The notes: generated by a model not told the origin, from the sequence alone. 64,000 nucleotides of DNA from a bacterium (GCA_017431625.1 JAFRKQ010000010.1:17503-81502), one strand, 5' to 3'; numbered from the stretch's first letter, positions 29,827 through 64,000 are shown. Made by a program: numbers and translations.

Positions 29827-30699
29827 TTAAAGGGTTTCGATTTTGATGTTGGCATCATACTCAGGCATTTTGACAAAAGCCAAGTATTTTTCGGTGGTCG
29901 TCAGGCGTTTGTGACCCACAATTTGGGACACATAGACCATCGGCAAACCAGCGCGCAATTGCTCAACAATGAAAGTGTGACGCAGGTCATTGACCTTGAC
30001 ACCTGCTCCCAAGCCCGCCAAACGGAAGTAACGATCCAGTGACTTGCGGATATTGCGCACCAAAAATGGCTTGCAGGTCTTGGTCAAAAAGACCGTCTTT
30101 TCCCGGGCACGCGGGCGTACCTTGAGGTAAGCCTGAAGCGTCTTTTTGGCCGTCTCATTAAGCGGCACCTTGCGATTGAGATGAGTGTCTTCAGTCTCAA
30201 TATTGATAATTCCCCGATCAAAATCGAGGTCATCAAGCTTGAGATTGGCCAACTCACTAATGCGCATCCCAGTCTGGAGGAGAGTTTCCACCACGGCCAA
30301 CATCCGGACGTCACCACGGCAGGCATCACGCAGGGCGCGATACTCAGTTTTGCTCAAAACCCGAGGTGGAGTCTGCTCACATTGAGGTTGTGACACCAAA
30401 CGTGAGGGATTATCCGGGATGTAGTGATTATCACTCAAATAGCGGAAGTATGACTTGACCGAGTTGACCTTGCGTGAGACCGTTTTATCTGAGCGGTAAA
30501 CTTTGCCCAAATAATCTTTGTAGGCCTCAAGGTCATCAGCGGCCACGCTGGCAATTTCGTTTTTGCCCCGACCAGCCAAAAACTCGGTGAGTTGCTCGAT
30601 GTCTTTGGTGTAAGCGATGATCGTGGCGTGAGCCTTGCCAGAGGCACTTAAGTAATCGTTGAATAGCTTTTCGCGATCCTGAATTGTCAGATTTGACAT
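29827..30699 (-). CDS. Tyrosine site-specific recombinase (XerC/XerD/phage-integrase family)
   Basis: 290 aa. C-terminal LRHTFIVEQLRAG..VSQIVGHKRLTTTEKYL, with the catalytic R..HxxR..Y arrangement. Confidence 0.8.
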   Translation of the reverse strand: MSNLTIQDREKLFNDYLSASGKAHATIIAYTKDIEQLTEFLAGRGKNEIASVAADDLEAYKDYLGKVYRSDKTVSRKVNSVKSYFRYLSDNHYIPDNPSRLVSQPQCEQTPPRVLSKTEYRALRDACRGDVRMLAVVETLLQTGMRISELANLKLDDLDFDRGIINIETEDTHLNRKVPLNETAKKTLQAYLKVRPRAREKTVFLTKTCKPFLVRNIRKSLDRYFRLAGLGAGVKVNDLRHTFIVEQLRAGLPMVYVSQIVGHKRLTTTEKYLAFVKMPEYDANIKIETL

Positions 30700-48201: not shown

Positions 48202-49989
48202 ATGGGCACAGGAACCGACTATCTTGACCATCTCGCCAATGACACTCGGGCAGAGGAGGAGTACATGTACACTAGTAATCGACGTTGGCAACATGACTAT
48301 GATGATTGGGACGATTGGAATCGCTGGGACGGTGACGATGATGACTATCAAAACACCTGTCCAGATGACGCTCCGCCGCCAGTGTTTATGATCGACCCGC
48401 AAGTGTATGAATTTGGTGGCTTCAAGCCGGTTTCGACCAAAAAACCCGCTCAGCCAAGCAAAAAACAGCGCCAAGCTCAGTCTCCAGTCAACCATCAGGC
48501 CAATACCAATTACTCTTTAGATCTTGATCCTCGTCCCGTGACTGTTTCTGGGCCTGATTTCCAATCGCAGCCGGTCGCGCCAACACCAGATAGCTGGCAA
48601 GATGACCCGGACAATCAGCCGCTGATGAGTGCCTGCTCAGATTTGCTCAAAACCGACAAAAACGCCTTTATTTTTGGCTCGGCTGGCACCGGCAAATCCA
48701 CGCTCTTGCGCCACATTTTGCACGAAATGAGTGATATTTTTGCGATTGTTGTCCTCGCGCCCACTGGGGTGGCGGCCATTAATGTAGGTGGCGAAACCAT
48801 TCATCACTTTTTGCATCTCAAGCCCGCAGCCGACGAGCAAGACACCAAAAGAGCCGCTAACAAAGCCAGAATGGAGCGACCCGAGATCTACACGCGCGTG
48901 GACTGGATTATTATTGACGAGATTTCCATGGTGCGAGCAGATCTTTTTGACAGTCTCAATCTTTTTTTGCAAATCGTGCGCGGCAATCGCCAGCCTTTTG
49001 GTGGTGTCCGGCTGATTTGTTTTGGTGATCTTTTCCAACTGGCGCCCATTGTCCGTCAACAGGAGGCAGCGGCCTTCAGTGAATACTACCAGACACCTTA
49101 TTTTTATGGTAGCCATGCTTTTGATCAGCTCATGATCCAGCAACAAGACGATGTCATCTTTATCGAGTTGAGCAAAATTTATCGCCAGAGTGACCCAGAT
49201 TTTATTAATTTGCTACAAAAAATTCGCCGTCGCGAGCTTTCGGCTGGTGACCTCGAGCAGCTCAATCGCCAAGTCATCAGTCACGACCAGCTCAAAAACT
49301 TGAGTCATCAGTGCGTCACCCTGACGGCCACCAAAGCCGCCGCCAAGGTCATCAATGACCGGCATATGAACAAACTCCAAGGCCAAATCAACCGCTATCA
49401 AGGTACAATTGAGGGCAATTTTAATTACAACTCCATGCCCACTGACAAGGTCCTTGTCTTGCGCCCCGGTGCTCGGGTGATGTTGCTTAATAATGATCCG
49501 GAAGGACGTTGGGTTAATGGCACGATGGGCACAGTGGTCAGCCTCCAGGCTCAGGAAGTTAGCGTGCGCCTGGACGATGGACCGCAGGTGAGTGTCCGTG
49601 AGGTCAGCTGGGAGGAATCAACTTCCAGATATGACCGGCTCAATCACCGCATTGTCCGAGAAGTAGTCGGCAAATTTACCCAGATCCCGCTTAAACTTGC
49701 CTGGGCGATCACCATTCACAAGTCTCAGGGCCAGACTTATGATGAGGTGGCTATTGACCTGGGCGAGCGGGCCTTTGCCGAAGGACAGACCTATGTGGCG
49801 CTCTCGCGAGCCCGCACCCTCAAGGGTATACATCTGGTGCGACCAGTGACTCTCGACGATATTTATTGCTGTCAGGATGTAGTCAATTTTGAGCGCAAAT
49901 TCTCGACCACGCCCGATGGTCGACGACGCTTCAAAGGCTTAACCGGCACCAAGGTCTCCAAATCAGGTGTCCAAGAAACTATCCTCTAA
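48202..49989 (+). CDS. Pif1/RecD-like superfamily 1 DNA helicase with acidic W/D-rich N-terminal extension
   Basis: GSAGTGKST (motif I), IIIDEISMV (II), GDLFQLAP (III), YRQSD. N-terminal about 150 aa DDWDDWNRWDGDDDDY low-complexity region. Leaderless: TATAAT 48190-95 lies 6 nt before the ATG. Confidence 0.75.
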   Translation: MGTGTDYLDHLANDTRAEEEYMYTSNRRWQHDYDDWDDWNRWDGDDDDYQNTCPDDAPPPVFMIDPQVYEFGGFKPVSTKKPAQPSKKQRQAQSPVNHQANTNYSLDLDPRPVTVSGPDFQSQPVAPTPDSWQDDPDNQPLMSACSDLLKTDKNAFIFGSAGTGKSTLLRHILHEMSDIFAIVVLAPTGVAAINVGGETIHHFLHLKPAADEQDTKRAANKARMERPEIYTRVDWIIIDEISMVRADLFDSLNLFLQIVRGNRQPFGGVRLICFGDLFQLAPIVRQQEAAAFSEYYQTPYFYGSHAFDQLMIQQQDDVIFIELSKIYRQSDPDFINLLQKIRRRELSAGDLEQLNRQVISHDQLKNLSHQCVTLTATKAAAKVINDRHMNKLQGQINRYQGTIEGNFNYNSMPTDKVLVLRPGARVMLLNNDPEGRWVNGTMGTVVSLQAQEVSVRLDDGPQVSVREVSWEESTSRYDRLNHRIVREVVGKFTQIPLKLAWAITIHKSQGQTYDEVAIDLGERAFAEGQTYVALSRARTLKGIHLVRPVTLDDIYCCQDVVNFERKFSTTPDGRRRFKGLTGTKVSKSGVQETIL

Positions 49990-49992
49990 TAA

Positions 49993-50031
49993 TTTGCTAC
50001 TTGACAAAAGTGACATTGTATGATATAATAC
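49993..50031 (+). promoter_or_regulatory. Consensus promoter (TTGACA 50001-06, TATAAT 50024-29)
   Basis: aaTTTGCTACTTGACAAAAgtgacattgtatgaTATAATacg. The transcribed segment 50033-50135 has no ORF. Confidence 0.55.
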
Positions 50032-50107
50032 GGGTGAATGGCAAGAGTGCCGGTGAGAGTTTGTAGGGTCTAATGATCGTGAGGCTAGTTTTTTGCTGGC
50101 CAAAAAG

Positions 50108-50132
50108 ATAGGCCCCTGCTAATTAAAGCAGG
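50108..50132. terminator. Hairpin GCCCCTGC-taattaaa-GCAGGGGC; on the minus strand it is followed by CTATCTTTTT, so it terminates the phosphomannomutase gene
   Basis: Strong GC stem 30 nt downstream of the minus-strand gene's stop. It is also the likely 3' end of the plus-strand small-RNA candidate. Confidence 0.5.
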
Positions 50133-50160
50133 GGCATACCAAGCTTGAAAGCTAAATGAA

Positions 50161-51591
50161 TTAGTCAAAAGCGTGGGTATTGACGCCTTGACTCCAGTCA
50201 ATCTCCTCGTGAGACGAAAGGATTTTTTTGAGGAGTTTTTTGAGGGCCTCGTACTCTTTTTTGGTTTTGGCCTCAAACTTGATGGTAATATAAGGACCAT
50301 TTTGGGAGGCGCGGATCGTCACCATTTGCGTGGGTGTATCCAGACGAATACCATCAATGGTGTTGTAATCGGCCTTGGGGAATTCCTTCTTGAGGTCCTT
50401 GGTAATCACGTTTTTGATGAACTTAAACTTGATCTCATCAGCCAGACCCAATTTGATCTCGGGACTGGTGGTAAACTTAGGCAGACTGTCTACCGCCTCA
50501 CCCAGAGTCAAGCCCTTGCGCTCAAGATATTGGAGCAGGCGCAGTGAGGCATAGGCGGCATCATCATGACCAAAGAAATTGTCATTAAAGAAAATGTGAC
50601 CCGAAAGCTCACCACCAAAGGGAGCGTTGAGTTCCTTGATTTTGGCCTTGATAAATGAGTGGCCTGTAATCCACATCACTGGCTGACCACCGCGTTTTTC
50701 GATCGTTTGGCTGACGGCCTTGGAGCAGAGATTGTTGAAGACAATTGGCGCCCCGGTCATGGTGTCAAGGACATCATCAGCAAAAAGAGCGACAACACTA
50801 TCCATCCATAAAACTCGCCCAGCTTCATCGACCACGGCCATACGGTCACCATCAGCGTCATAAGCCAGACCCAAATCAGCCTCATGTTTGAGGACACCCT
50901 CACGCAGGCGATTGAGGACCTCGACCTCGGTGGGATCAGGTACGCCCAGAGGGAAATTGCCATCGGGCTTGCAATTTTGCTCAATGACACTGCAACCAGC
51001 CTCATGCAAAATCTCGGGATAGAACATGCCACTAGTGGTGTTACTGGCATCAATGACCACTTTCCATTTTTTGCGCAGGCTGAAGTTTTTGAGAATTGTG
51101 CGCAAATATGAATCAAAAATATTGACTTTATGATTGGCCGCGGGCGTGGTGGCCGTCACGAAATCTGCCTTGTTGCACAGCTCGCGAAAGGCAATCACCT
51201 CCTCGGATAGCATGGTCTCGGAATAGCCAGTACCGAGTTTGAGACCATTGTATTGGCGCGGATTGTGAGAGGCGGTGATCATGGCGTAGCCTTTGGTCTT
51301 GTATTCATAAGCGGCATAATAAACCATCTGTGAGAGGGCATAACCCATGTCATAGGTCTCAATGCCACCATCGTTGAGGCCCTGGATAAAGGCTTTTTTG
51401 TAATCTTTGGAGGTGATGCGATTGTCGTGACCGACCGCGCAATCAACGATCCGGTGGATCGAAAGCCAAGTGGCATAAGCCCGACCAAAAGTGTAGTAAA
51501 CATCGGGGTTGAGATCCACGTCCATCACTCCACGGATATCATAACCCCGAAAAATATTGGGATTGATATTGGTGACAATTTTGTAAGCCAT
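50161..51591 (-). CDS. manB: Phosphomannomutase/phosphoglucomutase
   Basis: TASHNPRQYNGLKL (active-site Ser loop). GGELSGHIFF. 476 aa. Minus promoter variant at about 51611-51650. Confidence 0.85.
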   Translation of the reverse strand: MAYKIVTNINPNIFRGYDIRGVMDVDLNPDVYYTFGRAYATWLSIHRIVDCAVGHDNRITSKDYKKAFIQGLNDGGIETYDMGYALSQMVYYAAYEYKTKGYAMITASHNPRQYNGLKLGTGYSETMLSEEVIAFRELCNKADFVTATTPAANHKVNIFDSYLRTILKNFSLRKKWKVVIDASNTTSGMFYPEILHEAGCSVIEQNCKPDGNFPLGVPDPTEVEVLNRLREGVLKHEADLGLAYDADGDRMAVVDEAGRVLWMDSVVALFADDVLDTMTGAPIVFNNLCSKAVSQTIEKRGGQPVMWITGHSFIKAKIKELNAPFGGELSGHIFFNDNFFGHDDAAYASLRLLQYLERKGLTLGEAVDSLPKFTTSPEIKLGLADEIKFKFIKNVITKDLKKEFPKADYNTIDGIRLDTPTQMVTIRASQNGPYITIKFEAKTKKEYEALKKLLKKILSSHEEIDWSQGVNTHAFD

Positions 51592-51659
51592 AAAGCCTTT
51601 CTGTTACCGATTCGAGACATTATATCACGGATTTTGCTATTTTGACGAGCAATTTGGCA

Positions 51660-52751
51660 CTAAGTCAGTTGGGCTAGCTCAGCATCAATAAAAGGACGGA
51701 TCTTACCGTCTAAAACTCCAGCAGTATCACTGGTCTCTACACCGGTGCGCACATCTTTGACCAATTGATAAGGGTGGAGAACATAATTGCGGATTTGGGT
51801 GCCCCAACTAGCCTGAGTGTTATCGCCCTTGAGAGCCGAGAGTTCTTGGGTCTGTTGCTGCTCCTGCATGAGCGCTAGCCTGGAGCGCAAAATTTGTAGG
51901 GCGCGTTCTTTGTTTTGGGCCTGGAAGCGCTCCTCACGACAGCGCACCACAATCCCCAGTGGTAAGTAGGTCAGCTCCACCGCGGTATTGACTTTGTTGA
52001 CATTTTGCCCGCCGGCCCCGCCACTTCTGGTAAAATGCCACGATAAATCAGCTTCATTAAGAACAATGTCTTTGCTGTCGCTCTCAATAGCGGGCATCAC
52101 CTCGACCAAGCAAAAAGAAGTTTGTCTGAGATTGTCAGCATTAAAAGGTGACAATCGCACCAAGCGGTGAGTCCCGGCTTCGTGCTTGAGCAAACCATAG
52201 ACATGGCGGCCAGAGACCTCATAGGTAACGGCTTTAATCCCGGCCTCCTCGCCACGCGACTCGTCCAAAAGCTGATATTTCCAGCCCTCGCGCTCAAAAA
52301 AACGGGTGTAAGCGCGTGCCAGCATACTCGCCCAGTCCATCGCCTCGGTGCCACCCTGGCCCGCGTGAATGCTAAAAATCGCATCGTGACGGTCATATTT
52401 ACCTGTGAGGTATTGCTCCAGCTCCAGCGACTTGACCAAAGAGCGCAAACGCGCAAAAATTTCCTCCAGAGCTTTGATATAGTCGGGATTGTCAGGTTCT
52501 TCTGTCTGTAAAAATTGCGCTGTCTCCAGCTCGTCTAGCAAATCTACCAACCTCTGGCCAGTCTGCTCGCGCTCTCGCCACTCACCCAAGGCTTTCATGA
52601 TCTGTTTGGCATCTGGACGCGTCCAAAAATCGGGCAGGAGCGTTTGTTGCTCCAGCTGCTGGATCTTTTGGCCAGTCTCCTGACGGTCCAGGCGCACCAA
52701 AAGCGCTCGGGCCTTGTCCTGATAAAGCGAGATTTCCCTGGGCTCTAACAT
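51660..52751 (-). CDS. prfB: Peptide chain release factor 2
   Basis: GGQ motif (GGAGGQNVNKV) and SPF motif (RLSPFNAD). Encoded in a single frame with no programmed frameshift site. Confidence 0.85.
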   Translation of the reverse strand: MLEPREISLYQDKARALLVRLDRQETGQKIQQLEQQTLLPDFWTRPDAKQIMKALGEWREREQTGQRLVDLLDELETAQFLQTEEPDNPDYIKALEEIFARLRSLVKSLELEQYLTGKYDRHDAIFSIHAGQGGTEAMDWASMLARAYTRFFEREGWKYQLLDESRGEEAGIKAVTYEVSGRHVYGLLKHEAGTHRLVRLSPFNADNLRQTSFCLVEVMPAIESDSKDIVLNEADLSWHFTRSGGAGGQNVNKVNTAVELTYLPLGIVVRCREERFQAQNKERALQILRSRLALMQEQQQTQELSALKGDNTQASWGTQIRNYVLHPYQLVKDVRTGVETSDTAGVLDGKIRPFIDAELAQLT

Positions 52752-52754
52752 AAA

Positions 52755-53348
52755 TTACATGAATTGACCGCGTTCCACAAAGGCTTCTTCATCGCCAATA
52801 ATCATCAGCCGTTTGCCATACATCACTTCCATGATGAAAGGATCACGCCGTTGCTTGCGAAATTTGAACTCATTGGCATCAAAAATGGCAAAATTAATCT
52901 CACGGCCCATTTTTTTCTCTTCTTCTTTGATCAAAGCCTCAAGCTCAGGGATGACTACCTCACCAATCACCAAAATATCCAAGTCATCGGATTTGGGATG
53001 ACGATTGAAAAAAGCCGGCGTAAAAACGACGTAGTCAAGCTTGCCAAGTTTGCGACGCAGACGGCGAATTTTTTTGCCCAGACCATTCTCCTTAAAGACT
53101 ATCTGCTGGAGCTCAGCAAAAAAGGGATAGGCTTTATTGACGCGGTAATAAGTGCGATTGCCCCGATCTTCAGTGACCAGAACGCCATTTTTGGTGAGAT
53201 TCATCAACTCACGCCTGACCGCATTAATTTCCTCATCAATCAAGCGAGTCGCCTCGCGCACATAATAAACCTCACCGGGATTGAGGAAAAAAAGTCCCAA
53301 GACCTTCACTCGCACTCGACTGGTTATCAAATCTTGTAATTTCGCCAT
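52755..53348 (-). CDS. Winged-HTH transcriptional regulator with C-terminal nucleotidyltransferase-like (D-x-D) region
   Basis: N-terminal wHTH (EVYYVREATRLIDEEINAVRRELMNLTKNGVLV). C-terminal DLDILVIG resembles a minimal-NTase motif. Minus -10 TGTGGTATAAT at 53396-53406. Confidence 0.5.
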   Translation of the reverse strand: MAKLQDLITSRVRVKVLGLFFLNPGEVYYVREATRLIDEEINAVRRELMNLTKNGVLVTEDRGNRTYYRVNKAYPFFAELQQIVFKENGLGKKIRRLRRKLGKLDYVVFTPAFFNRHPKSDDLDILVIGEVVIPELEALIKEEEKKMGREINFAIFDANEFKFRKQRRDPFIMEVMYGKRLMIIGDEEAFVERGQFM

Positions 53349-53460
53349 ATTTTCATCTTTCGATTACATTTTGTCCTTTACACAAATCTTTCCTATTATA
53401 CCACAATTTGTGAAAAGTTATGTATTAACTCGCATTGAGTTTTGTCAAACAAAAAAATAT

Positions 53461-53620
53461 TTTAACACTGCGGCGCTTCGTGCATATCTCCGCAGTGGAG
53501 TGCGGAGCTCCGCGCGGAGCTGTGCAATACAGTGCGTCGCTTGGTGCTAAGCGGCGAAGTAGAGTGCGGAGCTGTGCGCGCAGCAGTGCAGTAAAGTGCA
53601 CAGCGGTGCAAGGCAGATAA
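53461..53620. repeat. GC-rich palindrome-dense repeat block L (contains the perfect palindrome GCGGAGCTCCGC at 53502-53513 and internal direct repeats AGTGCGGAGCT..GTGC)
   Basis: About 65% GC in an AT-rich intergenic region. Inverted repeats CACTGCGG/CCGCAGTG. Related to block R at 59086-59185 (both carry TGCATATCT...TGCGGAGCTCCGC). No coding potential. Confidence 0.5.
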
Positions 53621-53650
53621 CAATAAATTTATTACAAGAAAAAAATTGCC

Positions 53651-53690
53651 TCTTGCATTTTATTTTTTGCGTGCTATAATTAAGAGTGAT
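53651..53690 (+). promoter_or_regulatory. Promoter for the giant gene (ATTGCCTCTTGCAT-17-TGCTATAAT) with an about 250-nt leader
   Basis: aaATTGCCTCTTGCATtttattttttgcgTGCTATAATtaag shares the ATTGCCTCTTG upstream half with the consensus promoters. Confidence 0.5.
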
Positions 53691-53944
53691 CATAGTACAA
53701 GGTAAATCAAAGAAAGGATAATTCAAAAACTAAATTACAGCTCCATACCCTAAGCGTAATTTAGACCGCAAGTAAATTTAGCTCGGACACACAAAAAGAC
53801 ACATGACACAGTCACAGGGGAGTGCCTGAGCGGAAATTTTGATGATTTCCATGAGGTTTACTTTGTCTATGATCAGTGACAGTCGTGTGTCTTTTTGTGT
53901 GAGCAAAAGGTCACAAACAGAAAAAAACAAAGAAAGGAAACCTG

Positions 53945-56900
53945 ATGTCCAGGTGGTGGTTTTGGCATATCATTGTTTGCAAGAAGGCGTGTTGGCTAAT
54001 AGTAAATATCTTACTGTTAGGTTTGTTTTATACACACCGAATTCAAGCAACATCAATGCCCAACAATTGTCCTCCGGTAGTACAATATGGCAATCCGAGG
54101 CTTAAAAGCGGTAATGGAAGATTTATTAATAATAGTTATGCTTATAGAACTATTTGGCCACCAACAGGTTTTGAAAATTGCCAACGATATCGTTTGCCTG
54201 AAGAATTTTTTTGTCCCACTTCTCAAGGATGGTCGACAACCAAACCGACAAATTGTCCTGGTGGAAATATCATGATGATGCGTGTTGGTGGCGTTGGTAC
54301 ACCATATTTACTTTCTTCATCAACCTCAAATTCTACAATTGATGACGCACACGTAATTGTTGAAAATTTTAGACGTACTGAAAATGCAAACGAATTCGAA
54401 TCTTATTATGGAAATAACGTCTTTATTAATTTATCTAATGCATACGTGGAAGGCATTATTCCTTATAGTTGTTACAAATGCGGAATTTGTATATCTGGCG
54501 GCGGCACCAGCAGTTATAGAGATGGTAACAATAGAAAAGAATATGGTGCTAGCCCAGAAGCAGTTTCTAATGGCATAGGTCGTATCAACCTCGAACGATA
54601 CCTTCAACAATTAAAAGAGGAAGGAATATATGAATGTTTAGGCACCGATGTTATCCCAAATAGCAGTGGTGGAATCGCATATTTAGGCGGTCCAGGTAGT
54701 TCGATCGGCTGCCAAAATTCAGATGAATACACGTTATATTTACCGCAGTTTTATCGCAATTATAGGGTCAAACTCAATGGTATCTATTCAAAATACAGTT
54801 ACAGTACTGAAAGGGTAACTGAGGGTTACATTTTCCCTGGAGACAATAGTGCTTGGGAGCAGTCATTTGGCAATTATATTGCAGCTGGTTATTGCGTTCA
54901 CAAATGTTATTTGGCTGGCTATTTCAAGCCAAATACTCAATGTGCAGGTGCGCAATCAGTAAAAATCTGGTATGGCGGCAGCGGAATAATGAATAGACCG
55001 TCTGACAATCCCACTGATAATCTCCAGCAAATTACCTGTACCTACTGTCCGCCCTGTACCGAAGCAACCACTTGTACTCAAGCCTCAAACGAAACGACAG
55101 TTTATCATGAACCTACTTATCGCTGTAGTGAGGGGACATATGCTCAAGAGGCGCAACTCAAACAATGCAATGGCGATACACTCCAATGCAGAACTTGCGA
55201 GTGCGAAACATGTGAGCACCAAAATCTCACCGAAAAAACCTGCAGTGGTGACCGGCTGACACTCGACAAAACCATCAAAAGTTGTGACCAAAATCTGACT
55301 TGCCCCAAAAGTGTCTGTACTCGCAACTGCGAAGAACAAGGACAAGCAGATAGTCGCACTTACTACAGTCTCGCCACTAAGACTTGTGCCAACAACACCG
55401 CTGGCAACACCGAACCCAATATCATCACCGTCTATGACAGCCTCAACAAAGTATATTTGCGTGACGATAACGGCAATTCAATGTGCTTTGCTGGTTGTTC
55501 TGATCCGTGTCAAAGTACCGCACGCGGCGGACAGTCTTCGTGGAGTTTTTTTGCTGGACGCTACGCCAATGATAATTGTGGTCTGAGCTACACACCAACT
55601 CTGCGCGCAATCACCAATTACTATGGCGCCGAAGTCACCTGCCAAACCGATAGTTGCCAAGACCAATGCACGGCGCGGGGATTTACGCCCACAGACCGTA
55701 TTTCTTGTCCGGCAAATCAAGTGCCTAATTTAGTCAATCTATCTGTACCAATCAATGGTAAAACCATTATTTGCGCCAATGGTTGTCGTGACAATAATCC
55801 TGATGCTGGTTGGTGTACGAGTGTGGGCACCCCCACTTATGGCAACCAATGGCAGATCAAAACTAGAAAGACAGTACTCGTGAGCGACTATTATCAATAC
55901 CAAGCTGGTTACCCTTATCCTCATGGTAAAACTGGCCCTAGTACCACTATCAATAGTCATACTTATCAAGTGCTTTACGCGCCGCGCGGAGAAAAGAAAA
56001 ACGGCATCGCATATACCAATGGCGATTGTTTTTATGGCGGTTGCCGCGCTCAAGGGCGCACTTGTACGGCCCAGACTTGTGATACCAGCAACAATGTCAT
56101 TCGCTACGGCACTGGCGGCACCACATCCTGTCAACCAACAACGGCTTACAAAACTGACTGGTGTCAAAATGGTTGTGCTGCTATTCCCACTTTCACCACT
56201 CGCAGTGTCACCCAAACCCTTGATGACGCCAGCGTCACTTGTACCATGATCAATGGCTGTGGCCCACAGTATTTAGCCAGCACAGCTCCAAGTTGTACTT
56301 CACATTTGTGCGCCGGCTGGACTTGTAAAGAATATAACAAAAAAGATGGTACCACTTGCGAAGAAAGATATACCGACGACGAACATTGTGAAACTCGCAA
56401 TGAAGAAACCAAAGTGTGTACCTCATACCAATGTAAAAAATGGCAACAGGTGGACGACACTAGTAGCTGCAAAACATGGTACGATGCTAACAACGGTGGT
56501 GGCACCTATTATGAAAACAATACTCTCTGCACCACGGCTGGTCGATGTCAGTCAGCCACTTGTGTTGTGACCGCGTGCACCACACCGTGTCCAATGGTGA
56601 GTCAAACTATCGATAATGATCAAGGTTTTGGCACTTACAAGTTTTTGCGTCCCACCAAATATCCCAGCGGCACCACTTATTCGGTAAGCGGTGCAGGTAG
56701 TGATATGTGTGGCACCACTGACTACACCAGCACTCGCGCTTGTCGAGAGCCAAGCTGTACCCACGGCGAAGTTAATGCCAATACCGGCAAACGTCTGACT
56801 TACACTCTTAATACCGATATCGCTTATGACAGTGGCACGTCGACAGCGGCCAATTATTCTGATTATGTCAAATGCTCTCACCAATCAGGTCGTATCGGCA

Positions 56901-58054
56901 CCGACAATATGTGGACTGGTGGCACCTGGATGTGCGACTACAACTCCGAAAAAGTCGTCTATAGTCCCAGTGACCTATATGGTAGTAACACTTGCAACAA
57001 GGGAGACTACAATATCCGTTGCTTTCATCGCTACACCTGCAAAGAACTCTTGGGCGATAAACACAGTGATGAATATCACACCACTCTTCCCGCCGGCACT
57101 CAAGTTTTCATTCCTGAAATTGTCAATAAAGTCGCTGGGTGGGACTATCAAGGTGGGCGCTGCGGTAAATACGTGACCAGTAATTTGCCACAATGGCTAC
57201 AAGCCGGCGGCAATCAAGTAACTACAAGCGGTTCACGCTATGGCACAGGGGCCATGTATGATAGCTGTCCCGACGTTATCACTGCTCGGGCCGCTAGTAA
57301 TTTCTCGACAACAATCAGCAACATCCGCCGTGGCAACGATATGGTACCACTAAGCTACAATTACTTCGCCGAAAGACTCAATATCGATAGTTTGCCGTCA
57401 TGCACTAGCGCTACTATTGATAGTGAAGGCTTTTATGTTTGTCAAACAACAGGCCGAAAGCTTTCCGAACTGAGTACCTTTTTGCCGGCCAATATCAATG
57501 CTGTTATTTTTGTTACCAGTGGCGACCTGATCATTGACACCAATTTTCAAACAGCTCAAGGGTATTTTAAAGCTTTGATTGTTCGCGACAAAATCAAAGT
57601 GGACAAGCACGTCGGCACCAGAGCCCAAGATGCTGTCACTGGCAATATTACGAGTGGTTTGAGTATCAAGTGCCCACAACAAATTGACGCTCACTTGCAA
57701 GGGATTTTTATTGCCAGCAGTTTTGAGTTTGAAAGAAATCCTGTAGTCGATAGCGACATGGTAGCTTTTAATGGTAAGGAGCTTTATTGCGACCGTCAAT
57801 TGATAATTGCCGGCAGTTTGATTTCATACGGGAGCGATCTCAGGCTCGATCGTACTTTCCGCGGCTGCATTCAAGTTGCAGGCACTCGCGACGAAAATAA
57901 TGGCGGTTGGGACGATCTCAAAAACGACCCCAGCCTTTATCCCAATTACAATATCTACGCCATGCCATTTGTCTTTTTTGAACGCGCTGATTTCAATCGG
58001 ACCGCACCTTTGTGGATGAAAAACACCAACCTGGAACGGGTAGAAAACAATTAA
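53945..58054 (+). CDS. Giant cysteine-rich secreted/surface protein (1369 aa), N-terminal signal anchor
   Basis: AAAGGAAA RBS. N-terminal hydrophobic anchor WWFWHIIVCKKACWLIVNILLLGLF. Extremely Cys/Thr/Gly/Tyr/Asn-rich with many CxxC, C-T-x-C and EGF-like spacings. No enzymatic motifs recognised. Confidence 0.7.
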   Translation: MSRWWFWHIIVCKKACWLIVNILLLGLFYTHRIQATSMPNNCPPVVQYGNPRLKSGNGRFINNSYAYRTIWPPTGFENCQRYRLPEEFFCPTSQGWSTTKPTNCPGGNIMMMRVGGVGTPYLLSSSTSNSTIDDAHVIVENFRRTENANEFESYYGNNVFINLSNAYVEGIIPYSCYKCGICISGGGTSSYRDGNNRKEYGASPEAVSNGIGRINLERYLQQLKEEGIYECLGTDVIPNSSGGIAYLGGPGSSIGCQNSDEYTLYLPQFYRNYRVKLNGIYSKYSYSTERVTEGYIFPGDNSAWEQSFGNYIAAGYCVHKCYLAGYFKPNTQCAGAQSVKIWYGGSGIMNRPSDNPTDNLQQITCTYCPPCTEATTCTQASNETTVYHEPTYRCSEGTYAQEAQLKQCNGDTLQCRTCECETCEHQNLTEKTCSGDRLTLDKTIKSCDQNLTCPKSVCTRNCEEQGQADSRTYYSLATKTCANNTAGNTEPNIITVYDSLNKVYLRDDNGNSMCFAGCSDPCQSTARGGQSSWSFFAGRYANDNCGLSYTPTLRAITNYYGAEVTCQTDSCQDQCTARGFTPTDRISCPANQVPNLVNLSVPINGKTIICANGCRDNNPDAGWCTSVGTPTYGNQWQIKTRKTVLVSDYYQYQAGYPYPHGKTGPSTTINSHTYQVLYAPRGEKKNGIAYTNGDCFYGGCRAQGRTCTAQTCDTSNNVIRYGTGGTTSCQPTTAYKTDWCQNGCAAIPTFTTRSVTQTLDDASVTCTMINGCGPQYLASTAPSCTSHLCAGWTCKEYNKKDGTTCEERYTDDEHCETRNEETKVCTSYQCKKWQQVDDTSSCKTWYDANNGGGTYYENNTLCTTAGRCQSATCVVTACTTPCPMVSQTIDNDQGFGTYKFLRPTKYPSGTTYSVSGAGSDMCGTTDYTSTRACREPSCTHGEVNANTGKRLTYTLNTDIAYDSGTSTAANYSDYVKCSHQSGRIGTDNMWTGGTWMCDYNSEKVVYSPSDLYGSNTCNKGDYNIRCFHRYTCKELLGDKHSDEYHTTLPAGTQVFIPEIVNKVAGWDYQGGRCGKYVTSNLPQWLQAGGNQVTTSGSRYGTGAMYDSCPDVITARAASNFSTTISNIRRGNDMVPLSYNYFAERLNIDSLPSCTSATIDSEGFYVCQTTGRKLSELSTFLPANINAVIFVTSGDLIIDTNFQTAQGYFKALIVRDKIKVDKHVGTRAQDAVTGNITSGLSIKCPQQIDAHLQGIFIASSFEFERNPVVDSDMVAFNGKELYCDRQLIIAGSLISYGSDLRLDRTFRGCIQVAGTRDENNGGWDDLKNDPSLYPNYNIYAMPFVFFERADFNRTAPLWMKNTNLERVENN

Positions 58055-58111
58055 TTAGCAGTCTGTACCCTTATAAGTTTATTCAATTCACAAAAAATCT
58101 CTCACAAGAGA

Positions 58112-58140
58112 GATTTTTTGTTGGTAACAATCAAAAAACT
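58112..58140. terminator. Bidirectional rho-independent terminator AAAAAATCTCTCacaaGAGAGATTTTTTG
   Basis: Perfect 8-bp stem flanked by an A-run and a T-run, 60 nt after the giant gene's stop. Confidence 0.55.
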
Positions 58141-58205
58141 TAAGTTTGTGCTTACTCTTATTTTGACTCATAAAAACATCATCAATATGTTATAATACCA
58201 CTTCT

Positions 58206-58790
58206 ATGAATCAAGTAGAAAAAGACACTATAGAACTTTTGCAATTGCTTGATAAGCGTTCAATCATTGGCCGCCAAATATCAATCGATGTGCTCGCACA
58301 ATTAAATAAAATGTCCACTCAACAGCTATATGTCTACGCACAACAGCAAGTTCAACATTACCTCAATTTTATGTTTGTCGGTTACGATCATCAGGCCAAA
58401 ATATATTTTCATCCCGGTAACACTGAATCAGTTGCTAAATACACTCAACATCTAATTGCAGGCAAAAATAGTGATATTAACCAAATTAAAACCGCTAGAG
58501 TATTGGGTTTAATTCTCACTCCACAAACAATTGCGCAACCATTGCAAGTGATTATTCAGGAAAACAATCGCCTTGCTTATAATTGTCTCTACCAACTGAG
58601 ATTTAAACAACTATCGCATACTGTCATTATTGGGACTGAAAATGGACAGGTGGGTCGAGTAATCACCTCAATTGTTACCATTGATCAAAAGAGAGATAAA
58701 CACGCCTCATTGCGTGACGTCAAAAAACTGTGTACACGGGCAAAAGAAATTTTAGTGGTAAATCTTGATCAACAAAAACGCGCCGCCTAG
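58206..58790 (+). CDS. Hypothetical cytoplasmic protein (194 aa)
   Basis: Own promoter TTGACTcataaaaacatcatcaatatgTTATAAT, 9 nt before the ATG. No recognised domain. Confidence 0.5.
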   Translation: MNQVEKDTIELLQLLDKRSIIGRQISIDVLAQLNKMSTQQLYVYAQQQVQHYLNFMFVGYDHQAKIYFHPGNTESVAKYTQHLIAGKNSDINQIKTARVLGLILTPQTIAQPLQVIIQENNRLAYNCLYQLRFKQLSHTVIIGTENGQVGRVITSIVTIDQKRDKHASLRDVKKLCTRAKEILVVNLDQQKRAA

Positions 58791-58892
58791 CAGCGCGTCT
58801 TAATTCTAGGCCGGACTGTCCAGGTATCTGCGTCCCGCAACCGACCAGCAAAGGTCAACGATTGATACCAATCTGACTATGCTCGGTAATCA

Positions 58893-58923
58893 CATTATAC
58901 CATAAAATTGCGATTTGTCAACT
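58893..58923 (-). promoter_or_regulatory. Strong minus-orientation promoter (TTGACA-17-TGGTATAAT) pointing into the 3' end of the 58206-58790 gene
   Basis: Reverse complement TTGACAaatcgcaattttaTGGTATAATg. The transcribed antisense segment contains CCTGGACAGTCCGG and TTAAG. Confidence 0.5.
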
Positions 58924-59085
58924 ATTTATATGACAATGAAAAAACTGCTTTATATCCACTAATCTTTATGATTAACACTTAGCTCAGCTGCACTAGCACT
59001 TTCACCCAACTAGAATTATTTTTTCGGCAAGTACCAGCACCTAGTCTGTCACAAAAAAACATTTCTTTACTTCAGTCACTCACGA

Positions 59086-59185
59086 GTCTGCATATCTATG
59101 TGCGCAGCTCGGCAGTAAATTGCGGAGCTCCGCACACATCTCGGCATTACACTGCCGAGCTCCGCACCGAGCTGCGCAGTGCTTA
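59086..59185. repeat. GC-rich nested-palindrome repeat block R (GCGGAGCTCCGC at 59122-59133, GCCGAGCTCCGC at 59155-66, arms GCGCAGCTCGG/CCGAGCTGCGC)
   Basis: Related to block L (shared TGCATATCT, TGCGGAGCTCCGC, GAGCTGCGCAGTGC). Upstream of the 59323 gene. Confidence 0.5.
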
Positions 59186-59322
59186 GATAGAATAACCAAT
59201 ACATCTAACAAGTAAAAAACAATCCGACAATTATTGCCCGAGGTAAAAATATTGGTAAACTTTGAGGCAGTTGCAACTATTGCAATTATACCTGTGTTGT
59301 GACAAAATAGAAGGCGATAATT

Positions 59323-60477
59323 ATGAAAACTAGTGTTAGTCAACCACCAAAAATTGACAAAAAAATTTATTTAATCGGCATTGGTTTGGCTATTGGCATT
59401 ACCTTGATGATTGTGATTGGCTTGAGTGTGAAAAATTATCTTTTGGGTACAACACCCACCTTTGTGAGCACTACTACTAATAATAGTATTGACAACAGCT
59501 CACTGGCTACCAGCCGTCAAGCCCGACAAGTAGAGGAAAAATATTTACAGGCAGCACGCCAACTAATAGGACAAGTAGACGAGTCGCTTATCAGTGAATC
59601 GCTTGATCATGCTTTAGCGGCCGCTTGGGCCTGGCATGAATACGCTGTCGCTACCAATGAGCAGTCAGCCTATCGCCGATCGGCAGAAATTTTGACCACT
59701 GCCAGTCAACTGATGGCCAACGGTGAACGCGTTAATTATTTCAATTGTCTGCTGATGAAAGATATCATTAACGATAAAACTGTCAGCGAGTCAGTCCGTG
59801 AACAAGCCCGACATCTGTGCTTGCAGGCGCCACGCAATTATTATATTGACTCCACGCTGTCGCAACTCCAGGAACAAGTAGCAATAGGTCTAAGCAGTGA
59901 CGATGGTTACTCACTATTTATGCACACACCCGGATTTTTAATCAATGAGCGTGAGGGGGAGTTTTTTGCTCAACTCGAGTCGGCAGCCATGTCGGGTGAG
60001 TTTGTGCCGGCAGCGGAAATCGACCTGGATCGAGAAATGGCCGATCTCTACCTGCCACGCCAGCTTATCACTGCCCTTGACTGGACCGCGATGAGCCGAG
60101 AGGTGATCGACCGACAAAAACCTAGTGAGGCCAAAATAGATGACACGCGAGATTTGGACCGTTTTTACTTGACCCAGCAGACTTACGCGTGGGTGAAAAT
60201 GGCAAATCACCCGGTCATTTCTGGTCAAACCCAGTGTCTGCTTTACCACAACTTAAAGGATTATTTTGCTCACTATGGTGATGATTTATCATCAACAACC
60301 CAAACTCTCACCCTCAATCAGTATGAAGGTCCTACCAGTGGGATTTTGTGTCGTCACGTCGCTTTTTGGCATGATCCGACGTCACTGGAAAAAGAAGTGT
60401 TGCTGGCGGAGGCCGAGTCACTACCGGACGAGGAAACCTACAAAATGTTAATTAGTGCGGGACTTTTGTGTCAGTGA
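59323..60477 (+). CDS. Hypothetical membrane-anchored protein (384 aa)
   Basis: AGAAGG RBS. N-terminal TM (IYLIGIGLAIGITLMIVIGL). No recognised domain. Confidence 0.55.
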   Translation: MKTSVSQPPKIDKKIYLIGIGLAIGITLMIVIGLSVKNYLLGTTPTFVSTTTNNSIDNSSLATSRQARQVEEKYLQAARQLIGQVDESLISESLDHALAAAWAWHEYAVATNEQSAYRRSAEILTTASQLMANGERVNYFNCLLMKDIINDKTVSESVREQARHLCLQAPRNYYIDSTLSQLQEQVAIGLSSDDGYSLFMHTPGFLINEREGEFFAQLESAAMSGEFVPAAEIDLDREMADLYLPRQLITALDWTAMSREVIDRQKPSEAKIDDTRDLDRFYLTQQTYAWVKMANHPVISGQTQCLLYHNLKDYFAHYGDDLSSTTQTLTLNQYEGPTSGILCRHVAFWHDPTSLEKEVLLAEAESLPDEETYKMLISAGLLCQ

Positions 60478-60488
60478 TCAAAGGTAAT

Positions 60489-63400
60489 ATGTCAAAGCGA
60501 TATTGCTGCTACCACCACTTAAAAAAACTCACGGTCTTATTACTTTTGGTTGTGGGCATAAGCGATAAATATGTGAGTATCGCTCAAGCCGAAATCCCCG
60601 AAAACGAGTGGCAATGTCCTCATGACACCAGCCACCTTCCCAATGGCAATCCTGGTTACAATCAATATTTGGACAACCGGTATTTACCGCGCAGCAAATT
60701 CAGAAAATTTGTCGAAAAATGTGGCAATGAAAACGGTCAGTTGTGGTATGATCAGCTCCACACGCAATATGGTAATAGCGGTTGGATGCTGAATTGTTCC
60801 AAAAATATGTTGTATAGTTTTTGGGACTACCGCTACTTGGATAGCAGCGGTTGTGGACACAAAGAATTTGCCTTGTGTATGCGTGAGCGTGATTGTGACG
60901 GCACTTATCAGACTTGCCCCGATGGTTATATGAGTGCTCCTGAGTTTTACCAACACCGGTGCGAAATTCCTTGCAAGCTTTACGAAACTTTAACTGGTCG
61001 CTCATGTGAGAGTATCCTGTTGCAAGCTAGCGGCACTATCGGCGATGATCTTGATAAATTCAAGGACTACAAACTTTCTTTTGACGCCAGTGGTAAAGCC
61101 GCGCTCAAACTCCTGCGCGAAAAGGTAGACACCGCCAACCAAAAACTACGTGATTTTCTGCAAGCCTATGGTGATGGTGATGACTTTCAAATCTCTTTCC
61201 CCACCGGACAAAATATACCGAACGTTCGCAAAGACATTACGACCGCCCAAAACAAAGTTAAAGCCGTCGCCGCTCCGAGCTCACTAGAGCTGACTCTCTA
61301 TCAAATGAGGCGCGATAGTGCCGAAACGCTTTATAATAATTACGTCAGTTTATACAATAACGCCAATAATCCTAATTATTACGAGCAACGCCGCCAATAT
61401 ACTTTTAAGTGGAGTGACTATGCTTATACTTGTGATTGGGGCAAGAGTGTGAGCGAATGTCAAAACGAGATTAGCGACAGACTCACGCAATCAACTGCTA
61501 CGTTCTGGAAGTGGTATCATTTAAACCGCTCTGGCAACTATAACGATTATCATTACGAAAGCTCAGATTATTGTACTGTGACTTATGGTGAATATAGTCA
61601 CATTTGCTGGTCCAATTGTGCTACCTGCCGGAATACAGTTAATTCTAATCTTACTGGCGCTACTAATAACTATCGCCAGTGGTATTTTCTTAATGAACAC
61701 AACAGTAATTACACCTATGACTATTACTACTACTATCATTATGGTAATGTCAGCTATACTTGTCCCCAGGCGACTGCACATAGCACTTGTCGAGAAAATA
61801 TTGCTCAACTGCGTGATGCGGCCAAACAAGACTATGAAGAGAAAAAAGCACTCTATGAAGGTGCGCGCAATTTTGATAATAACAAGGCTGATGTCGTCTA
61901 TGCGCTCACCCAGGCATCTAATGCCCTTACTGATTATGAACTGTCAACAACAGCGACAAAGGGCAATTGGTTGGATGGCTTTTGTACCAATATCAATAGC
62001 AACACCCGCAACTGTATCGTCGCGCGTCTGATGACCCGTTGTCTTAATCGCGCCAATAGTTATTTTACCTCAAGCACGCCGCCTGATTATGCTACCAATG
62101 GTGTTGTCACCGCCAATCGTGAAAGTCACACTTGCAATCACGGTCACAACAATACTTTGAATCCCAGCACCTGCGAGAAATTTGCCTGCTACCTAGAGCG
62201 TCAGGAATGTAGTGACTACAATCCTCTTTATGTGGAGAAGGGTGAGTCATGCGTAGTTGGCAATAGTCTTGGGAGTATCTACGTGCCCGAGCTTGGTCGC
62301 AGCTGCACTCAATGTGGTGCCGGTAATACTTGCCAGGAGGCGAGCACCTACGGCTGGTATTATGACTCCCAGCGCGAAAAGCAAGAGGGAGTGGGTACTG
62401 ATAGTCAGCAAAAAACACGCTGGAAGCTATTCTTCTACAATGAAAGTGTTGATGCTGGTCGCTGGTGGTCGGTGCGCACCAGTTGTGCTCCCGGACAAAC
62501 ACCCACTTATCGAGCCTTCGGTGATGAGCGTTGCATAGTCGGCTGCTCGCAATCATGCAGCGAAATTCCTGATCCGGATACTGGTGGCATGATGGAGGAC
62601 GACAAGGACACCAACTCTTGCGCCAGACGTGGCTGGAATCCACGCTACAAGCAAGTGACCGATGCTTATGGCAACAGACTCCAGTGTGTTGGCGGCTGTA
62701 TTGAACCTTGTCGCGACAATGGCCTGTTTACCCTGGCTGAAACTGGTTGTGATATCTACACTGACAGCGCTTTCTTGACAGCCAATACGCAAACTATCAC
62801 TCGCCACTATGGTGGCAGTGTGACCTGTTATAAAGATCGCTGCAAAAAGTCACCCGGTCCAATTGACAATGGCAATGAATGTGAAAATCAAGGTTATCGT
62901 GCTCAGTGCGATTCGGCCAGTGCTAGTAGTTGTCATTGGACTTGTTCAACCAACGAGCAACTCATCGCTCCAGAAGAAGTCATAGACAAAGACGGTAATA
63001 CTATTTACTGTACGCCCGGCTGTCAAGTAATCAGTGATCCGCCCCGACCTGCAGTTGATTGCGACACCCTCGGCCTCAACACCGATCCTTCAACTCTCAG
63101 TACTATTGCTCGTGAAGATGATAGCAGTCCAGTTTTCAATGATCTTTATAAAGACAAGAGTGAAGTTTTGTATGTGATTCGCAATGCGTGGCTGATTAAA
63201 AAAGCCCAACGAAAAATCGTGTACACTATTGGCGGTCGTAATTATTACGTTGTCTATGGACCCAAAGCGTCAGAGTTGCCAGAAGTCACCCGCACTCATA
63301 TTGTCTGTCGCTACGATAAGTGCCAACCTAATGACGCCGCTGTGCGCGCGAGTGAATTTGATCGTAGTCATGAATGTGCTAGTGATGATATCCGTGTTTA

Positions 63401-64000
63401 CGGCAAAGTCGATGATCGTTGCGGTCGCAGTTATCCTTTTGTGCGGACTTGCTATAAAGTACCGGAACCCAATCGACAAATTTCCTACGGTAAATGTCCC
63501 AATTACCGCTGCGGACGCCAACTGCGTGAAGAATGGGATGAAGACAGAAGCTATTGCGTCTACACTGATATTTGCAACACCTGCACTCCCGTGTGTCGTC
63601 ATGATACTGATCGCGGCTATGGTGTTTACCGGACAGCTTGTGTTGGCCCTGGAGGTGAGTCCACCCACTCTGACTATTGTAGTAGTACTTATTATGAAGC
63701 CACCATTGCCTGTAGCGTGCCTACTTGCACCAAGCTAGCAGACCACTTAAGTGATCTTGACCGGACTAATTACCTCAAATGCGATGCCGCTAGCACTACC
63801 CATAATACCATTGACCTAGATGACACCCATCACAATGAACAATCTTATGGCGTGGGTGGTAAATACCAATGTACCAATAACAATCCCGTGATTGATACGC
63901 ATAGTGGCTGTCATGACAATGGCGCGCGCTGCTTCCATGTCTTGGAGTGTGGCGAAGAGTTGGATAGTAGCGGTAATATCAAAGTGGCTGCCGATGGTAG
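60489..64000 (+). CDS. Second giant cysteine-rich secreted protein, partial (more than 1170 aa, continues beyond the window end)
   Basis: Manual translation from ATG 60489 shows no stop to 64000 (MSKRYCCYHHLKKLTVLLLLVVGISDKYVSIAQAE.. signal peptide). Cys/Tyr/Asn/Thr-rich like the 53945 gene. Not in the ORF track because no stop lies in the window. Confidence 0.65.
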   Translation, partial: MSKRYCCYHHLKKLTVLLLLVVGISDKYVSIAQAEIPENEWQCPHDTSHLPNGNPGYNQYLDNRYLPRSKFRKFVEKCGNENGQLWYDQLHTQYGNSGWMLNCSKNMLYSFWDYRYLDSSGCGHKEFALCMRERDCDGTYQTCPDGYMSAPEFYQHRCEIPCKLYETLTGRSCESILLQASGTIGDDLDKFKDYKLSFDASGKAALKLLREKVDTANQKLRDFLQAYGDGDDFQISFPTGQNIPNVRKDITTAQNKVKAVAAPSSLELTLYQMRRDSAETLYNNYVSLYNNANNPNYYEQRRQYTFKWSDYAYTCDWGKSVSECQNEISDRLTQSTATFWKWYHLNRSGNYNDYHYESSDYCTVTYGEYSHICWSNCATCRNTVNSNLTGATNNYRQWYFLNEHNSNYTYDYYYYYHYGNVSYTCPQATAHSTCRENIAQLRDAAKQDYEEKKALYEGARNFDNNKADVVYALTQASNALTDYELSTTATKGNWLDGFCTNINSNTRNCIVARLMTRCLNRANSYFTSSTPPDYATNGVVTANRESHTCNHGHNNTLNPSTCEKFACYLERQECSDYNPLYVEKGESCVVGNSLGSIYVPELGRSCTQCGAGNTCQEASTYGWYYDSQREKQEGVGTDSQQKTRWKLFFYNESVDAGRWWSVRTSCAPGQTPTYRAFGDERCIVGCSQSCSEIPDPDTGGMMEDDKDTNSCARRGWNPRYKQVTDAYGNRLQCVGGCIEPCRDNGLFTLAETGCDIYTDSAFLTANTQTITRHYGGSVTCYKDRCKKSPGPIDNGNECENQGYRAQCDSASASSCHWTCSTNEQLIAPEEVIDKDGNTIYCTPGCQVISDPPRPAVDCDTLGLNTDPSTLSTIAREDDSSPVFNDLYKDKSEVLYVIRNAWLIKKAQRKIVYTIGGRNYYVVYGPKASELPEVTRTHIVCRYDKCQPNDAAVRASEFDRSHECASDDIRVYGKVDDRCGRSYPFVRTCYKVPEPNRQISYGKCPNYRCGRQLREEWDEDRSYCVYTDICNTCTPVCRHDTDRGYGVYRTACVGPGGESTHSDYCSSTYYEATIACSVPTCTKLADHLSDLDRTNYLKCDAASTTHNTIDLDDTHHNEQSYGVGGKYQCTNNNPVIDTHSGCHDNGARCFHVLECGEELDSSGNIKVAADG

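Follow-up and report, generated by a model that had tools for sequence, protein, structure and literature searches.

Two giant cysteine-rich exported proteins in a CPR genome

We analyzed a stretch of 64,000 nucleotides of DNA from an uncultured bacterium (GCA_017431625.1 JAFRKQ010000010.1:17503-81502), hereafter called the window, whose last part carries two giant genes, G1 and G2, coding for Cys-rich exported proteins, each preceded by a block of GC-rich palindromes. G1 (53945-58054, + strand) codes for a protein of 1369 aa with 78 Cys (5.7%). G2 starts at 60489 on the same strand and is still open at the window end after 1170 codons (5.9% Cys in this part). It could be completed from the contig L086 of the same strain, which corresponds to window positions 58327-64000 plus 1.7 kb beyond, and the full protein has 1516 aa and also 78 Cys (5.1%), with its C-terminal module lying past the window end. 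Thr, Tyr, and Asn are also abundant in both proteins. Each has a single N-terminal hydrophobic segment (residues 6-29 in G1 and 14-32 in G2), followed by an AxA-like site that we located by inspection (IQA/TS and AQA/EI, respectively).

A preliminary description of the window, made from the sequence alone, had reported two giant exported reading frames rich in Cys, Thr, Tyr, and Asn, lacking recognizable enzymatic motifs and resembling no described system. Our results agree with it on all these points, as neither protein has an enzymatic or other family match in Pfam, NCBIfam, PADLOC, or PHROGs. The same description had named S-layer and RHS/toxin proteins as families to which the giants might turn out to be homologous. 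We looked for them in Pfam and NCBIfam and found no RHS/YD repeats, SLH domains, or other S-layer domains in G1, in G2, or in 10 members of their family. A role of the giants in a defense system was discarded given the lack of PADLOC matches. The suggested origin of the DNA in the Candidate Phyla Radiation (CPR, or Patescibacteria) is also confirmed by sequence similarity: RF2, the product of the nearby prfB gene, has its best matches in metagenome assembled genomes of Patescibacteria, the first at 77% identity and the next ones at 60% or less, the named relatives among the latter being Pacebacteria and Woesebacteria.

A rare family defined by its C-terminal part

G1 and G2 share 33% identity over around 520-547 C-terminal residues (E=1e-53), a similarity that identifies them as paralogs. 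With G1 as a query, a word-indexed search returned nothing from 5.8 billion proteins, and an exact look-up was likewise empty. We then used residues 171-1369 of G1 in an exhaustive HMMER search of 1.84 billion cluster representatives (1.84e9) and obtained 13 proteins, two of which are self matches (P0001 is a fragment of G1 and P0004 is the C-terminus of G2). With the exception of P0001, all matches fall within the C-terminal part of G1, and residues 1-850 have no match outside this strain in this database. A word-indexed search with an alignment of the C-terminal module recovered only four proteins and missed most of the HMMER matches. A scan of metagenomes with a profile of the giant subfamily gave 175 pattern matches, none of which was confirmed, and tblastn searches of phage genomes found no match to the module. 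These searches show a family that is very rare and that lacks annotation.

Full-length orthologs of G2 are found in three giants, P0002, P0003, and P0005 (1534-1585 aa; 26-32% identity), while in the shorter members of the family (287-787 aa) the similarity is limited to the last 300-370 residues. The alignment of the family has invariant Cys, Asp, Arg, and Trp positions. In order, its conserved motifs are C.....C.E, G.RCGKY, PWW, FV.GDL.I, F.A.IV.G.I.V...VG, LQG.FIA, CDRQL..AG, RTF.GC, and a terminal RPDF...AP.WMK....R.E. One member, P0011 (787 aa), has a Hint/PT-HINT domain (intein-like autoprocessing) at residues 64-213, before its Cys-rich region and its beta-helix module, which by analogy with polymorphic toxins hints at autoproteolytic processing.

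The preliminary description had proposed structure prediction as a check. We ran AlphaFold2 on the last 312 residues of G1 with an alignment of 13 sequences and obtained a model with a predicted TM-score of 0.77, in which the well-modeled core spans residues ~80-250 of this stretch with a predicted local distance difference test score (pLDDT) of 85-95. The stretch is predicted to fold as a right-handed beta-helix. Foldseek returned no significant PDB match for the module, and searching PDB sequences with a profile gave no match either. On the basis of this model, the module is a beta-helix with no close relative among solved structures. The family DUF7305 of Pfam (gathering threshold 27 bits) matches neither G1 nor G2. 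Two distant relatives approach it without reaching the threshold, among them P0015 with 26.2 bits, just under it, and one member of the alignment A1 matches it with E=7.7e-4.

Membrane proteins accompany the giants

The preliminary description had assigned two companion genes to the giants, and only one of them, c384, turned out to be a conserved partner. This gene (59323-60477, + strand) codes for 384 aa with an N-terminal transmembrane segment and sits 11 nt upstream of G2. It belongs to a family that we call B, and a B homolog is found directly upstream of a family member in 7 of the 7 related loci for which upstream sequence was available (the window, L082, L083, L084, L090, L091, and L092). 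In B proteins an N-terminal membrane segment is combined with an all-helical domain that contains two invariant Cys, and the motif at the C-terminus is AGLLxQ/K, which in c384 reads AGLLxQ. The positive-inside rule would place the helical domain of c384 outside the membrane. L091 and L092 come from a single genome (GCA_964466205.1) and are two pairs of a B gene and a family member, the latter of 630 and 712 aa; hence, duplication of the module within a genome recurs.

A third partner, A, is encoded past the window end. The giants P0002, P0003, and P0005 are preceded not only by B but also by this second single-pass membrane protein of 223-242 aa. In our genome the A homolog has 214 aa (L086, 6728-7372), lies directly after G2, and is 38% identical to the copy in L083. 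A is thus present in all four giant loci (the window genome, L082, L083, and L084), and since it follows G2 the gene order is permuted, from A-B-Giant in L082, L083, and L084 to B-Giant-A here. Neither A nor B matches Pfam, and c384 has no family match in NCBIfam, PADLOC, or PHROGs beyond the weak AlgL score given below. In two of these loci, L082 (5500-7436) and L084 (14674-19352), the module lies beside the same glycosyltransferase cluster, which includes a GT1 gene, another gene that is GT2-like (about 903 aa), and a protein of 274/280 aa that is 66% identical between the loci.

The other proposed companion, c194 (58206-58790, + strand; 194 aa), has no hydrophobic segment, no counterpart at any of the related loci, and no match in Pfam, NCBIfam, PADLOC, PHROGs, or, by tblastn, in phage genomes. 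It is separated from G1 by a terminator-like hairpin located 3' of G1 (58090-58121, + strand), which has a perfect 14-bp stem with A and T tracts, and it has a promoter-like site of its own. It is probably not part of the module. Its stop codon is overlapped by the end of a candidate small RNA of about 115 nt (58771-58921, minus strand). The candidate, which is divergent from block R, has a perfect TG-extended TTGACA-16-TATAAT promoter (58921-58894), and a GC hairpin followed by a T-run forms its end. It is identical in L086 and L087 and matches no Rfam family.

The predicted folds of the module and of B also fit a different function, in which the gene module would be a pair of effectors that degrade or modify glycans of the host or of the cell's own envelope, with a catalytic beta-helix and B as an alpha/alpha-toroid helper similar to hydrolases or lyases, and would not be an adhesin. 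The model of B resembles (alpha/alpha)6 toroids, namely GH76, GH127, LanC-like, and thioester domains, and either predicted fold is frequent among lyases and hydrolases. In NCBIfam, B weakly matches the alginate lyase AlgL (E=0.04), the invariant positions of the module include Asp, Arg, and Glu (D226, R246, R308, and E310), the modules of L082 and L084 adjoin the shared glycosyltransferase cluster, and giant genes of predatory bacteria have been tied to cell-wall degradation (bioRxiv 10.1101/2023.11.21.568195). However, the model of B was built from a shallow alignment and is poor (pLDDT 54), so that its toroid resemblances are only hints. Moreover, sequence searches detected no glycoside hydrolase or polysaccharide lyase family, and we did not identify the catalytic motifs of these enzymes. 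We therefore regard a glycan-active pair as unlikely.

Palindromic arrays precede both giants

A block of tandem palindromes lies upstream of each giant. Block L (53465-53624, + strand) consists of five GC-rich palindromic units of 32 nt (L1-L5, the last of which is degenerate), and block R (59085-59180, + strand), upstream of the c384-G2 operon, consists of three (R1-R3). The period of 32 nt was found by both a repeat-family search and TRF. The 12-bp palindrome GCGGAGCTCCGC, which the preliminary description had rightly noted as common to both blocks, occurs exactly at only two positions of the 64 kb, 53502 and 59122, i.e. once upstream of each giant gene, with a further copy with one mismatch at 59154. 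Its expected count is 0.10, and none of 100 shuffles reached three copies. The 8-mer GCGGAGCT has 7 copies in the window, every one of them inside the two blocks, compared with 1.5 expected, and the 28-nt degenerate unit TGCSGAGCTCCGCRCSGAGCTNNGCART has one match per block (L2 and R3), both on the + strand, and none elsewhere in the 64 kb. The array units are of the TGCSGAGCTCCGC type, starting with TGC and finishing with GCA. The best ones are nested palindromes around the core TGCGGAGCTCCGCA, and in block R we found TGCGGAGCTCCGCA at 59121 and TGCCGAGCTCCGCA at 59153. Since 32 bp are close to three turns of B-DNA, successive cores would face the same side of the helix. The blocks coincide with GC islands (53461-53610 and 59118-59186) whose GC is 0.62 or more, compared with ~46% for the genome.

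Block L lies between the putative promoters of a winged helix-turn-helix (wHTH) gene (TGgTATAAT, minus strand, ~53396-53404) and of G1 (53653-53680, + strand). Both were recognized by inspection. The latter reads TTGCAT-16-TGcTATAAT with an extended -10, and is missed by a consensus scan because its -35 hexamer is weak. It implies a 5' leader of ~255 nt. The leader contains a hairpin (53788-53901, + strand) with a 20-bp stem (19/20 paired) enclosing 74 nt, which ends 44 nt before the ATG. The leader fold has -68.8 kcal/mol (z=-4.55), and the hairpin, which has no match in Rfam, could either regulate as an RNA structure or stem from the insertion of a miniature inverted repeat. Block R lies between the perfect minus-strand promoter of the candidate small RNA and the upstream region of c384.

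The preliminary description had suggested searching related genomes for the same gene order with the blocks, and the outcome is mixed: the blocks are found in this species, where they are identical in five same-strain contigs from other assemblies, and in L093, from a related species (76% identity in the B protein), and they are absent at ~30% identity. The contig L093 begins inside block R. Its visible part of the block, the 15 nt of the 3' end (GCTCCGCACCGAGCT), matches at 15/15 positions, compared with 71% identity over the whole aligned region. Between block R and c384, the islands GCAACTATTGCAATT and GTTGTGACAAAATAGA (59262-59310) are also fully conserved in L093; the first holds a TTGCAA direct repeat, and together they are probably the promoter or leader.

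We consider that the arrays most likely act as a shared operator, and we compared this with other explanations. They might be non-regulatory repeats of the repetitive extragenic palindrome (REP), bacterial interspersed mosaic element (BIME), or miniature inverted-repeat transposable element type, or remnants of a duplication, that lie by chance upstream of the giants. The blocks are rich in hairpins and in GC within an AT-leaning genome, L and R resemble each other both as direct and as inverted repeats, L093 ends inside a block as assemblies often do at repeats, and the orthologous operons of more distant relatives lack them. However, REP/BIME elements have numerous copies dispersed over a genome, often along with a REP-associated tyrosine transposase, and here there are only two copies among roughly 55 intergenic regions of the 64 kb, and both are at the promoters of paralogs in the same orientation. 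The phasing of 32 bp agrees with a protein bound to a single face of the DNA helix, and the part visible in L093 is perfectly conserved in a much less conserved region. Transposases, target-site duplications, and, among the scanned open reading frames, REP-associated tyrosine transposases are absent. In addition, G1 and G2 have diverged too much for non-coding remnants of their duplication to have survived without selection. On the 64 kb covered here, we regard non-regulatory repeats as an unlikely explanation of the blocks.

The blocks could also act as RNA, either as structured 5' regions or as small RNAs, and not as DNA operators. As RNA they fold better than shuffled sequences (z=-3.2 for block L and z=-4.5 for block R), and the locus has other candidates for structured RNA, the G1 leader hairpin and the minus-strand small RNA. 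Yet good folding as RNA is a built-in property of palindromic DNA, both blocks are upstream of the best promoter candidates of G1 and c384, and we found no convincing promoter directed into them. Rfam gave no match for the blocks, as searches at gathering and E-value thresholds returned only tRNAs and noise. A function as RNA thus appears most improbable. The blocks do not have the features of arrays of clustered regularly interspaced short palindromic repeats either, since the units abut without spacers and are 61-77% alike, and cas genes are absent among the scanned open reading frames. A search of metagenomes with the 28-nt unit gave 7 matches, which come from one orthologous coding region of an organism with 67% GC that on inspection reads as a protein kinase. 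We discarded them as unrelated.

The neighboring wHTH gene

The gene next to block L (52755-53348, minus strand; 197 aa) codes for a protein with a wHTH and a nucleotidyltransferase-like part, is co-directional with prfB, and has its stop codon 3 nt from the prfB start. The preliminary description had proposed it as the regulator of the locus, i.e. a protein that binds GCGGAGCTCCGC and controls the giants. Its position directly beside block L, divergent from G1, and its winged-helix-like N-terminal region (weak matches to ArsR, PaaX, and DUF7342) are in line with this idea. However, the pair that it forms with prfB is conserved in L001 (9406-9999, 91% identity) and in L002 (4223-4816, 74%), and these loci have neither a giant gene nor the GCGGAGCT motif. 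Their upstream neighbors are a nuclease and dnaE, or frr-rseP-DUF3048, and the promoter region of L001 has no GC palindrome. In addition, the protein matches PDC-M05A, a candidate defense family of PADLOC, over residues 2-190 (E=3.9e-37), and its C-terminal half has a weak nucleotidyltransferase signature. Because the gene is also paired with prfB where relatives have neither giants nor palindromes, we consider it very unlikely to be the regulator of the giants. Its adjacency to block L is most simply explained if the giant locus just adjoins a conserved housekeeping pair. In each of the three genomes, the wHTH gene and prfB are direct neighbors, the former upstream of the latter.

Genomic setting and strain-level variation

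The remainder of the window is ordinary chromosome, with genes for murein synthesis, a tRNA synthetase, PNPase, MurJ, and ABC exporters. It also encodes a XerC/D-like tyrosine recombinase (29830-30699, minus strand) and a PIF1/RecD-like helicase (48202-49989, + strand), neither of which has an evident link to the giant locus. We considered a mobile island with L and R as inverted-repeat ends and rejected it: there is no integrase or transposase inside, the composition of the interval is not distinctive, and G2, which has the same block, lies outside of it. An invertible segment was rejected as well, since five same-strain contigs that cross L or R show the arrangement of the window only.

Assemblies of the ENA labeled XIEF21-1_SAMN1582xxxx hold near-identical contigs, and the same-strain contigs L085, which corresponds to window positions 50003-57736, and L086 come from another assembly. 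In these contigs G1 shows two nonsense changes, E152* and K662*, and G2 a deletion of 1 nt at window position 63042 that causes a frameshift. The ratio of non-synonymous to synonymous changes is 9:2 in the giants versus 1:4 in flanking genes (Fisher p=0.036, on small numbers). It is possible that the giants undergo inactivation or diversification at the level of the population, the alternative being assembly errors.

Comparison with known systems

Large Cys-rich extracellular proteins have been described in the CPR Peribacteria, where they average ~1655 aa and ~7% Cys, vary between strains, and have been proposed to have a role in attachment (Anantharaman et al. 2016; PMC4736985). G1 and G2 share with them a CPR host, signal peptides, the lack of annotation, the presence of several clustered copies, and the strain-level variation. 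They are similar in length and in Cys content (1369 and 1516 aa, with 5-6% Cys), and they have all the traits of this class: more than 1000 aa, several percent Cys, a signal peptide, no annotation, and variability between strains. This class is descriptive and not a family of homologs, so that our proteins are likened to it by description. Unlike the class, their family has a specific C-terminal beta-helix module and the B and A membrane partners as its defining traits, belongs to a lineage near Pacebacteria and Woesebacteria, and has palindrome arrays close to its promoters. The descriptive class of large Cys-rich CPR proteins was known, and what is new is a family that lacks annotation and has a C-terminal domain and membrane partners specific to it.

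The combination of a beta-helix and export brings to mind the TpsA adhesins (FHA, HMW1, and EtpA) and the tapirins of Caldicellulosiruptor. In contrast with TpsA proteins, we found no two-partner secretion (haemagglutination activity) domain and no Omp85-type (TpsB) partner with Pfam and NCBIfam in G1, G2, or their neighbors. The beta-helix of the giants is C-terminal instead of N-terminal, and their partner crosses the membrane once and has a helical domain. In general, CPR cells are considered to have no outer membrane, which TpsB requires. ComZ, the pilin at the tip of the competence pilus of Thermus thermophilus (PDB 6qvi; PMC6561018), differs from G1 and G2, which have ordinary signal peptides, lack a prepilin leader (G/FxxxE) with a hydrophobic alpha-1 helix, and have no pilus genes beside their locus. 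As for the ice-binding fold (DUF3494), it has no sequence match here and its Foldseek score is not significant, which leaves only the generic likeness between beta-helices.

The blocks resemble phased operator arrays of bacterial transcription factors, in which palindromic sites in tandem lie on one side of the helix, given their 14-bp palindromic core repeated every 32 bp (~3 turns) upstream of promoters, and given that the element is common to two co-located paralogous transcription units. They differ from known arrays of this type in units that are unusually GC-rich and nested-palindromic, and a regulatory role is putative here.

A possible surface display system

The preliminary description had interpreted the locus as a regulated surface adhesin or host-interaction system. 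The export of the giants, a beta-helical end that fits an adhesin-like protein, and the cis element shared by both giants are consistent with this, and the part attributed to the wHTH gene falls away. In the mechanism that we propose, the giant would be exported by means of a Sec-type signal peptide. The conserved beta-helical end would, with B and A, hold or assemble it at the cell surface, and the variable Cys-rich part would be displayed as an adhesin or as a structure for contact with the host. G1 would be monocistronic with a long structured leader, and c384, G2, and A would form one operon. The arrays would most likely be a shared operator for a dimeric DNA-binding protein that co-regulates the two giants. 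The paralogy of the giants, their rarity, their linkage to B and A, and the uniqueness and phasing of the arrays were observed directly, as was the beta-helix at the level of a prediction. We infer from them the localization of the giants, their adhesive role, and their regulation by the arrays. We give an even chance to this reading as a whole, that of giants fixed at the surface that display a fast-evolving Cys-rich head as an adhesin or for host contact, with both paralogs coordinated through the arrays.

Several observations weigh against it. Beta-helices and alpha/alpha-toroids are folds that polysaccharide lyases and hydrolases typically have as well, and the giants have no anchoring motif or adhesin domain of a known type. 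We identified no candidate regulator for the arrays, whose conservation in L093 is seen over 15 nt, and the promoters of the locus were assigned by inspection. The relatives at ~30% identity (L082-L084) have ordinary AT-rich promoters without a GC palindrome block; hence, the array is an addition specific to this lineage and does not define the module. No separate B gene accompanies G1, which may depend on the c384-G2-A operon. Finally, all the evidence for surface display and coordination is computational.

A more specific version of surface display, which we put forward tentatively, is that A, B, and the giant form a previously unrecognized three-component system for display or secretion in CPR bacteria. 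In it, A and B would dock the beta-helix, and hypervariable Cys-rich heads would recognize the host. In this lineage, the system would be duplicated, its dedicated regulon marked by the arrays, and nonsense and frameshift variants would turn it off in subpopulations.

As far as we know, host recognition and attachment in CPR bacteria are largely obscure beyond the type IV pili of Saccharibacteria. The locus defines a rare module composed of a giant Cys-rich exported protein with a new beta-helical C-terminal domain and one or two dedicated membrane partners, and the rarity of the family limits the generality of the module. The cis element may serve as a tag for surface genes that are co-regulated in this lineage, and the disruptive variants of the giants suggest that selection on these surface proteins is changing.

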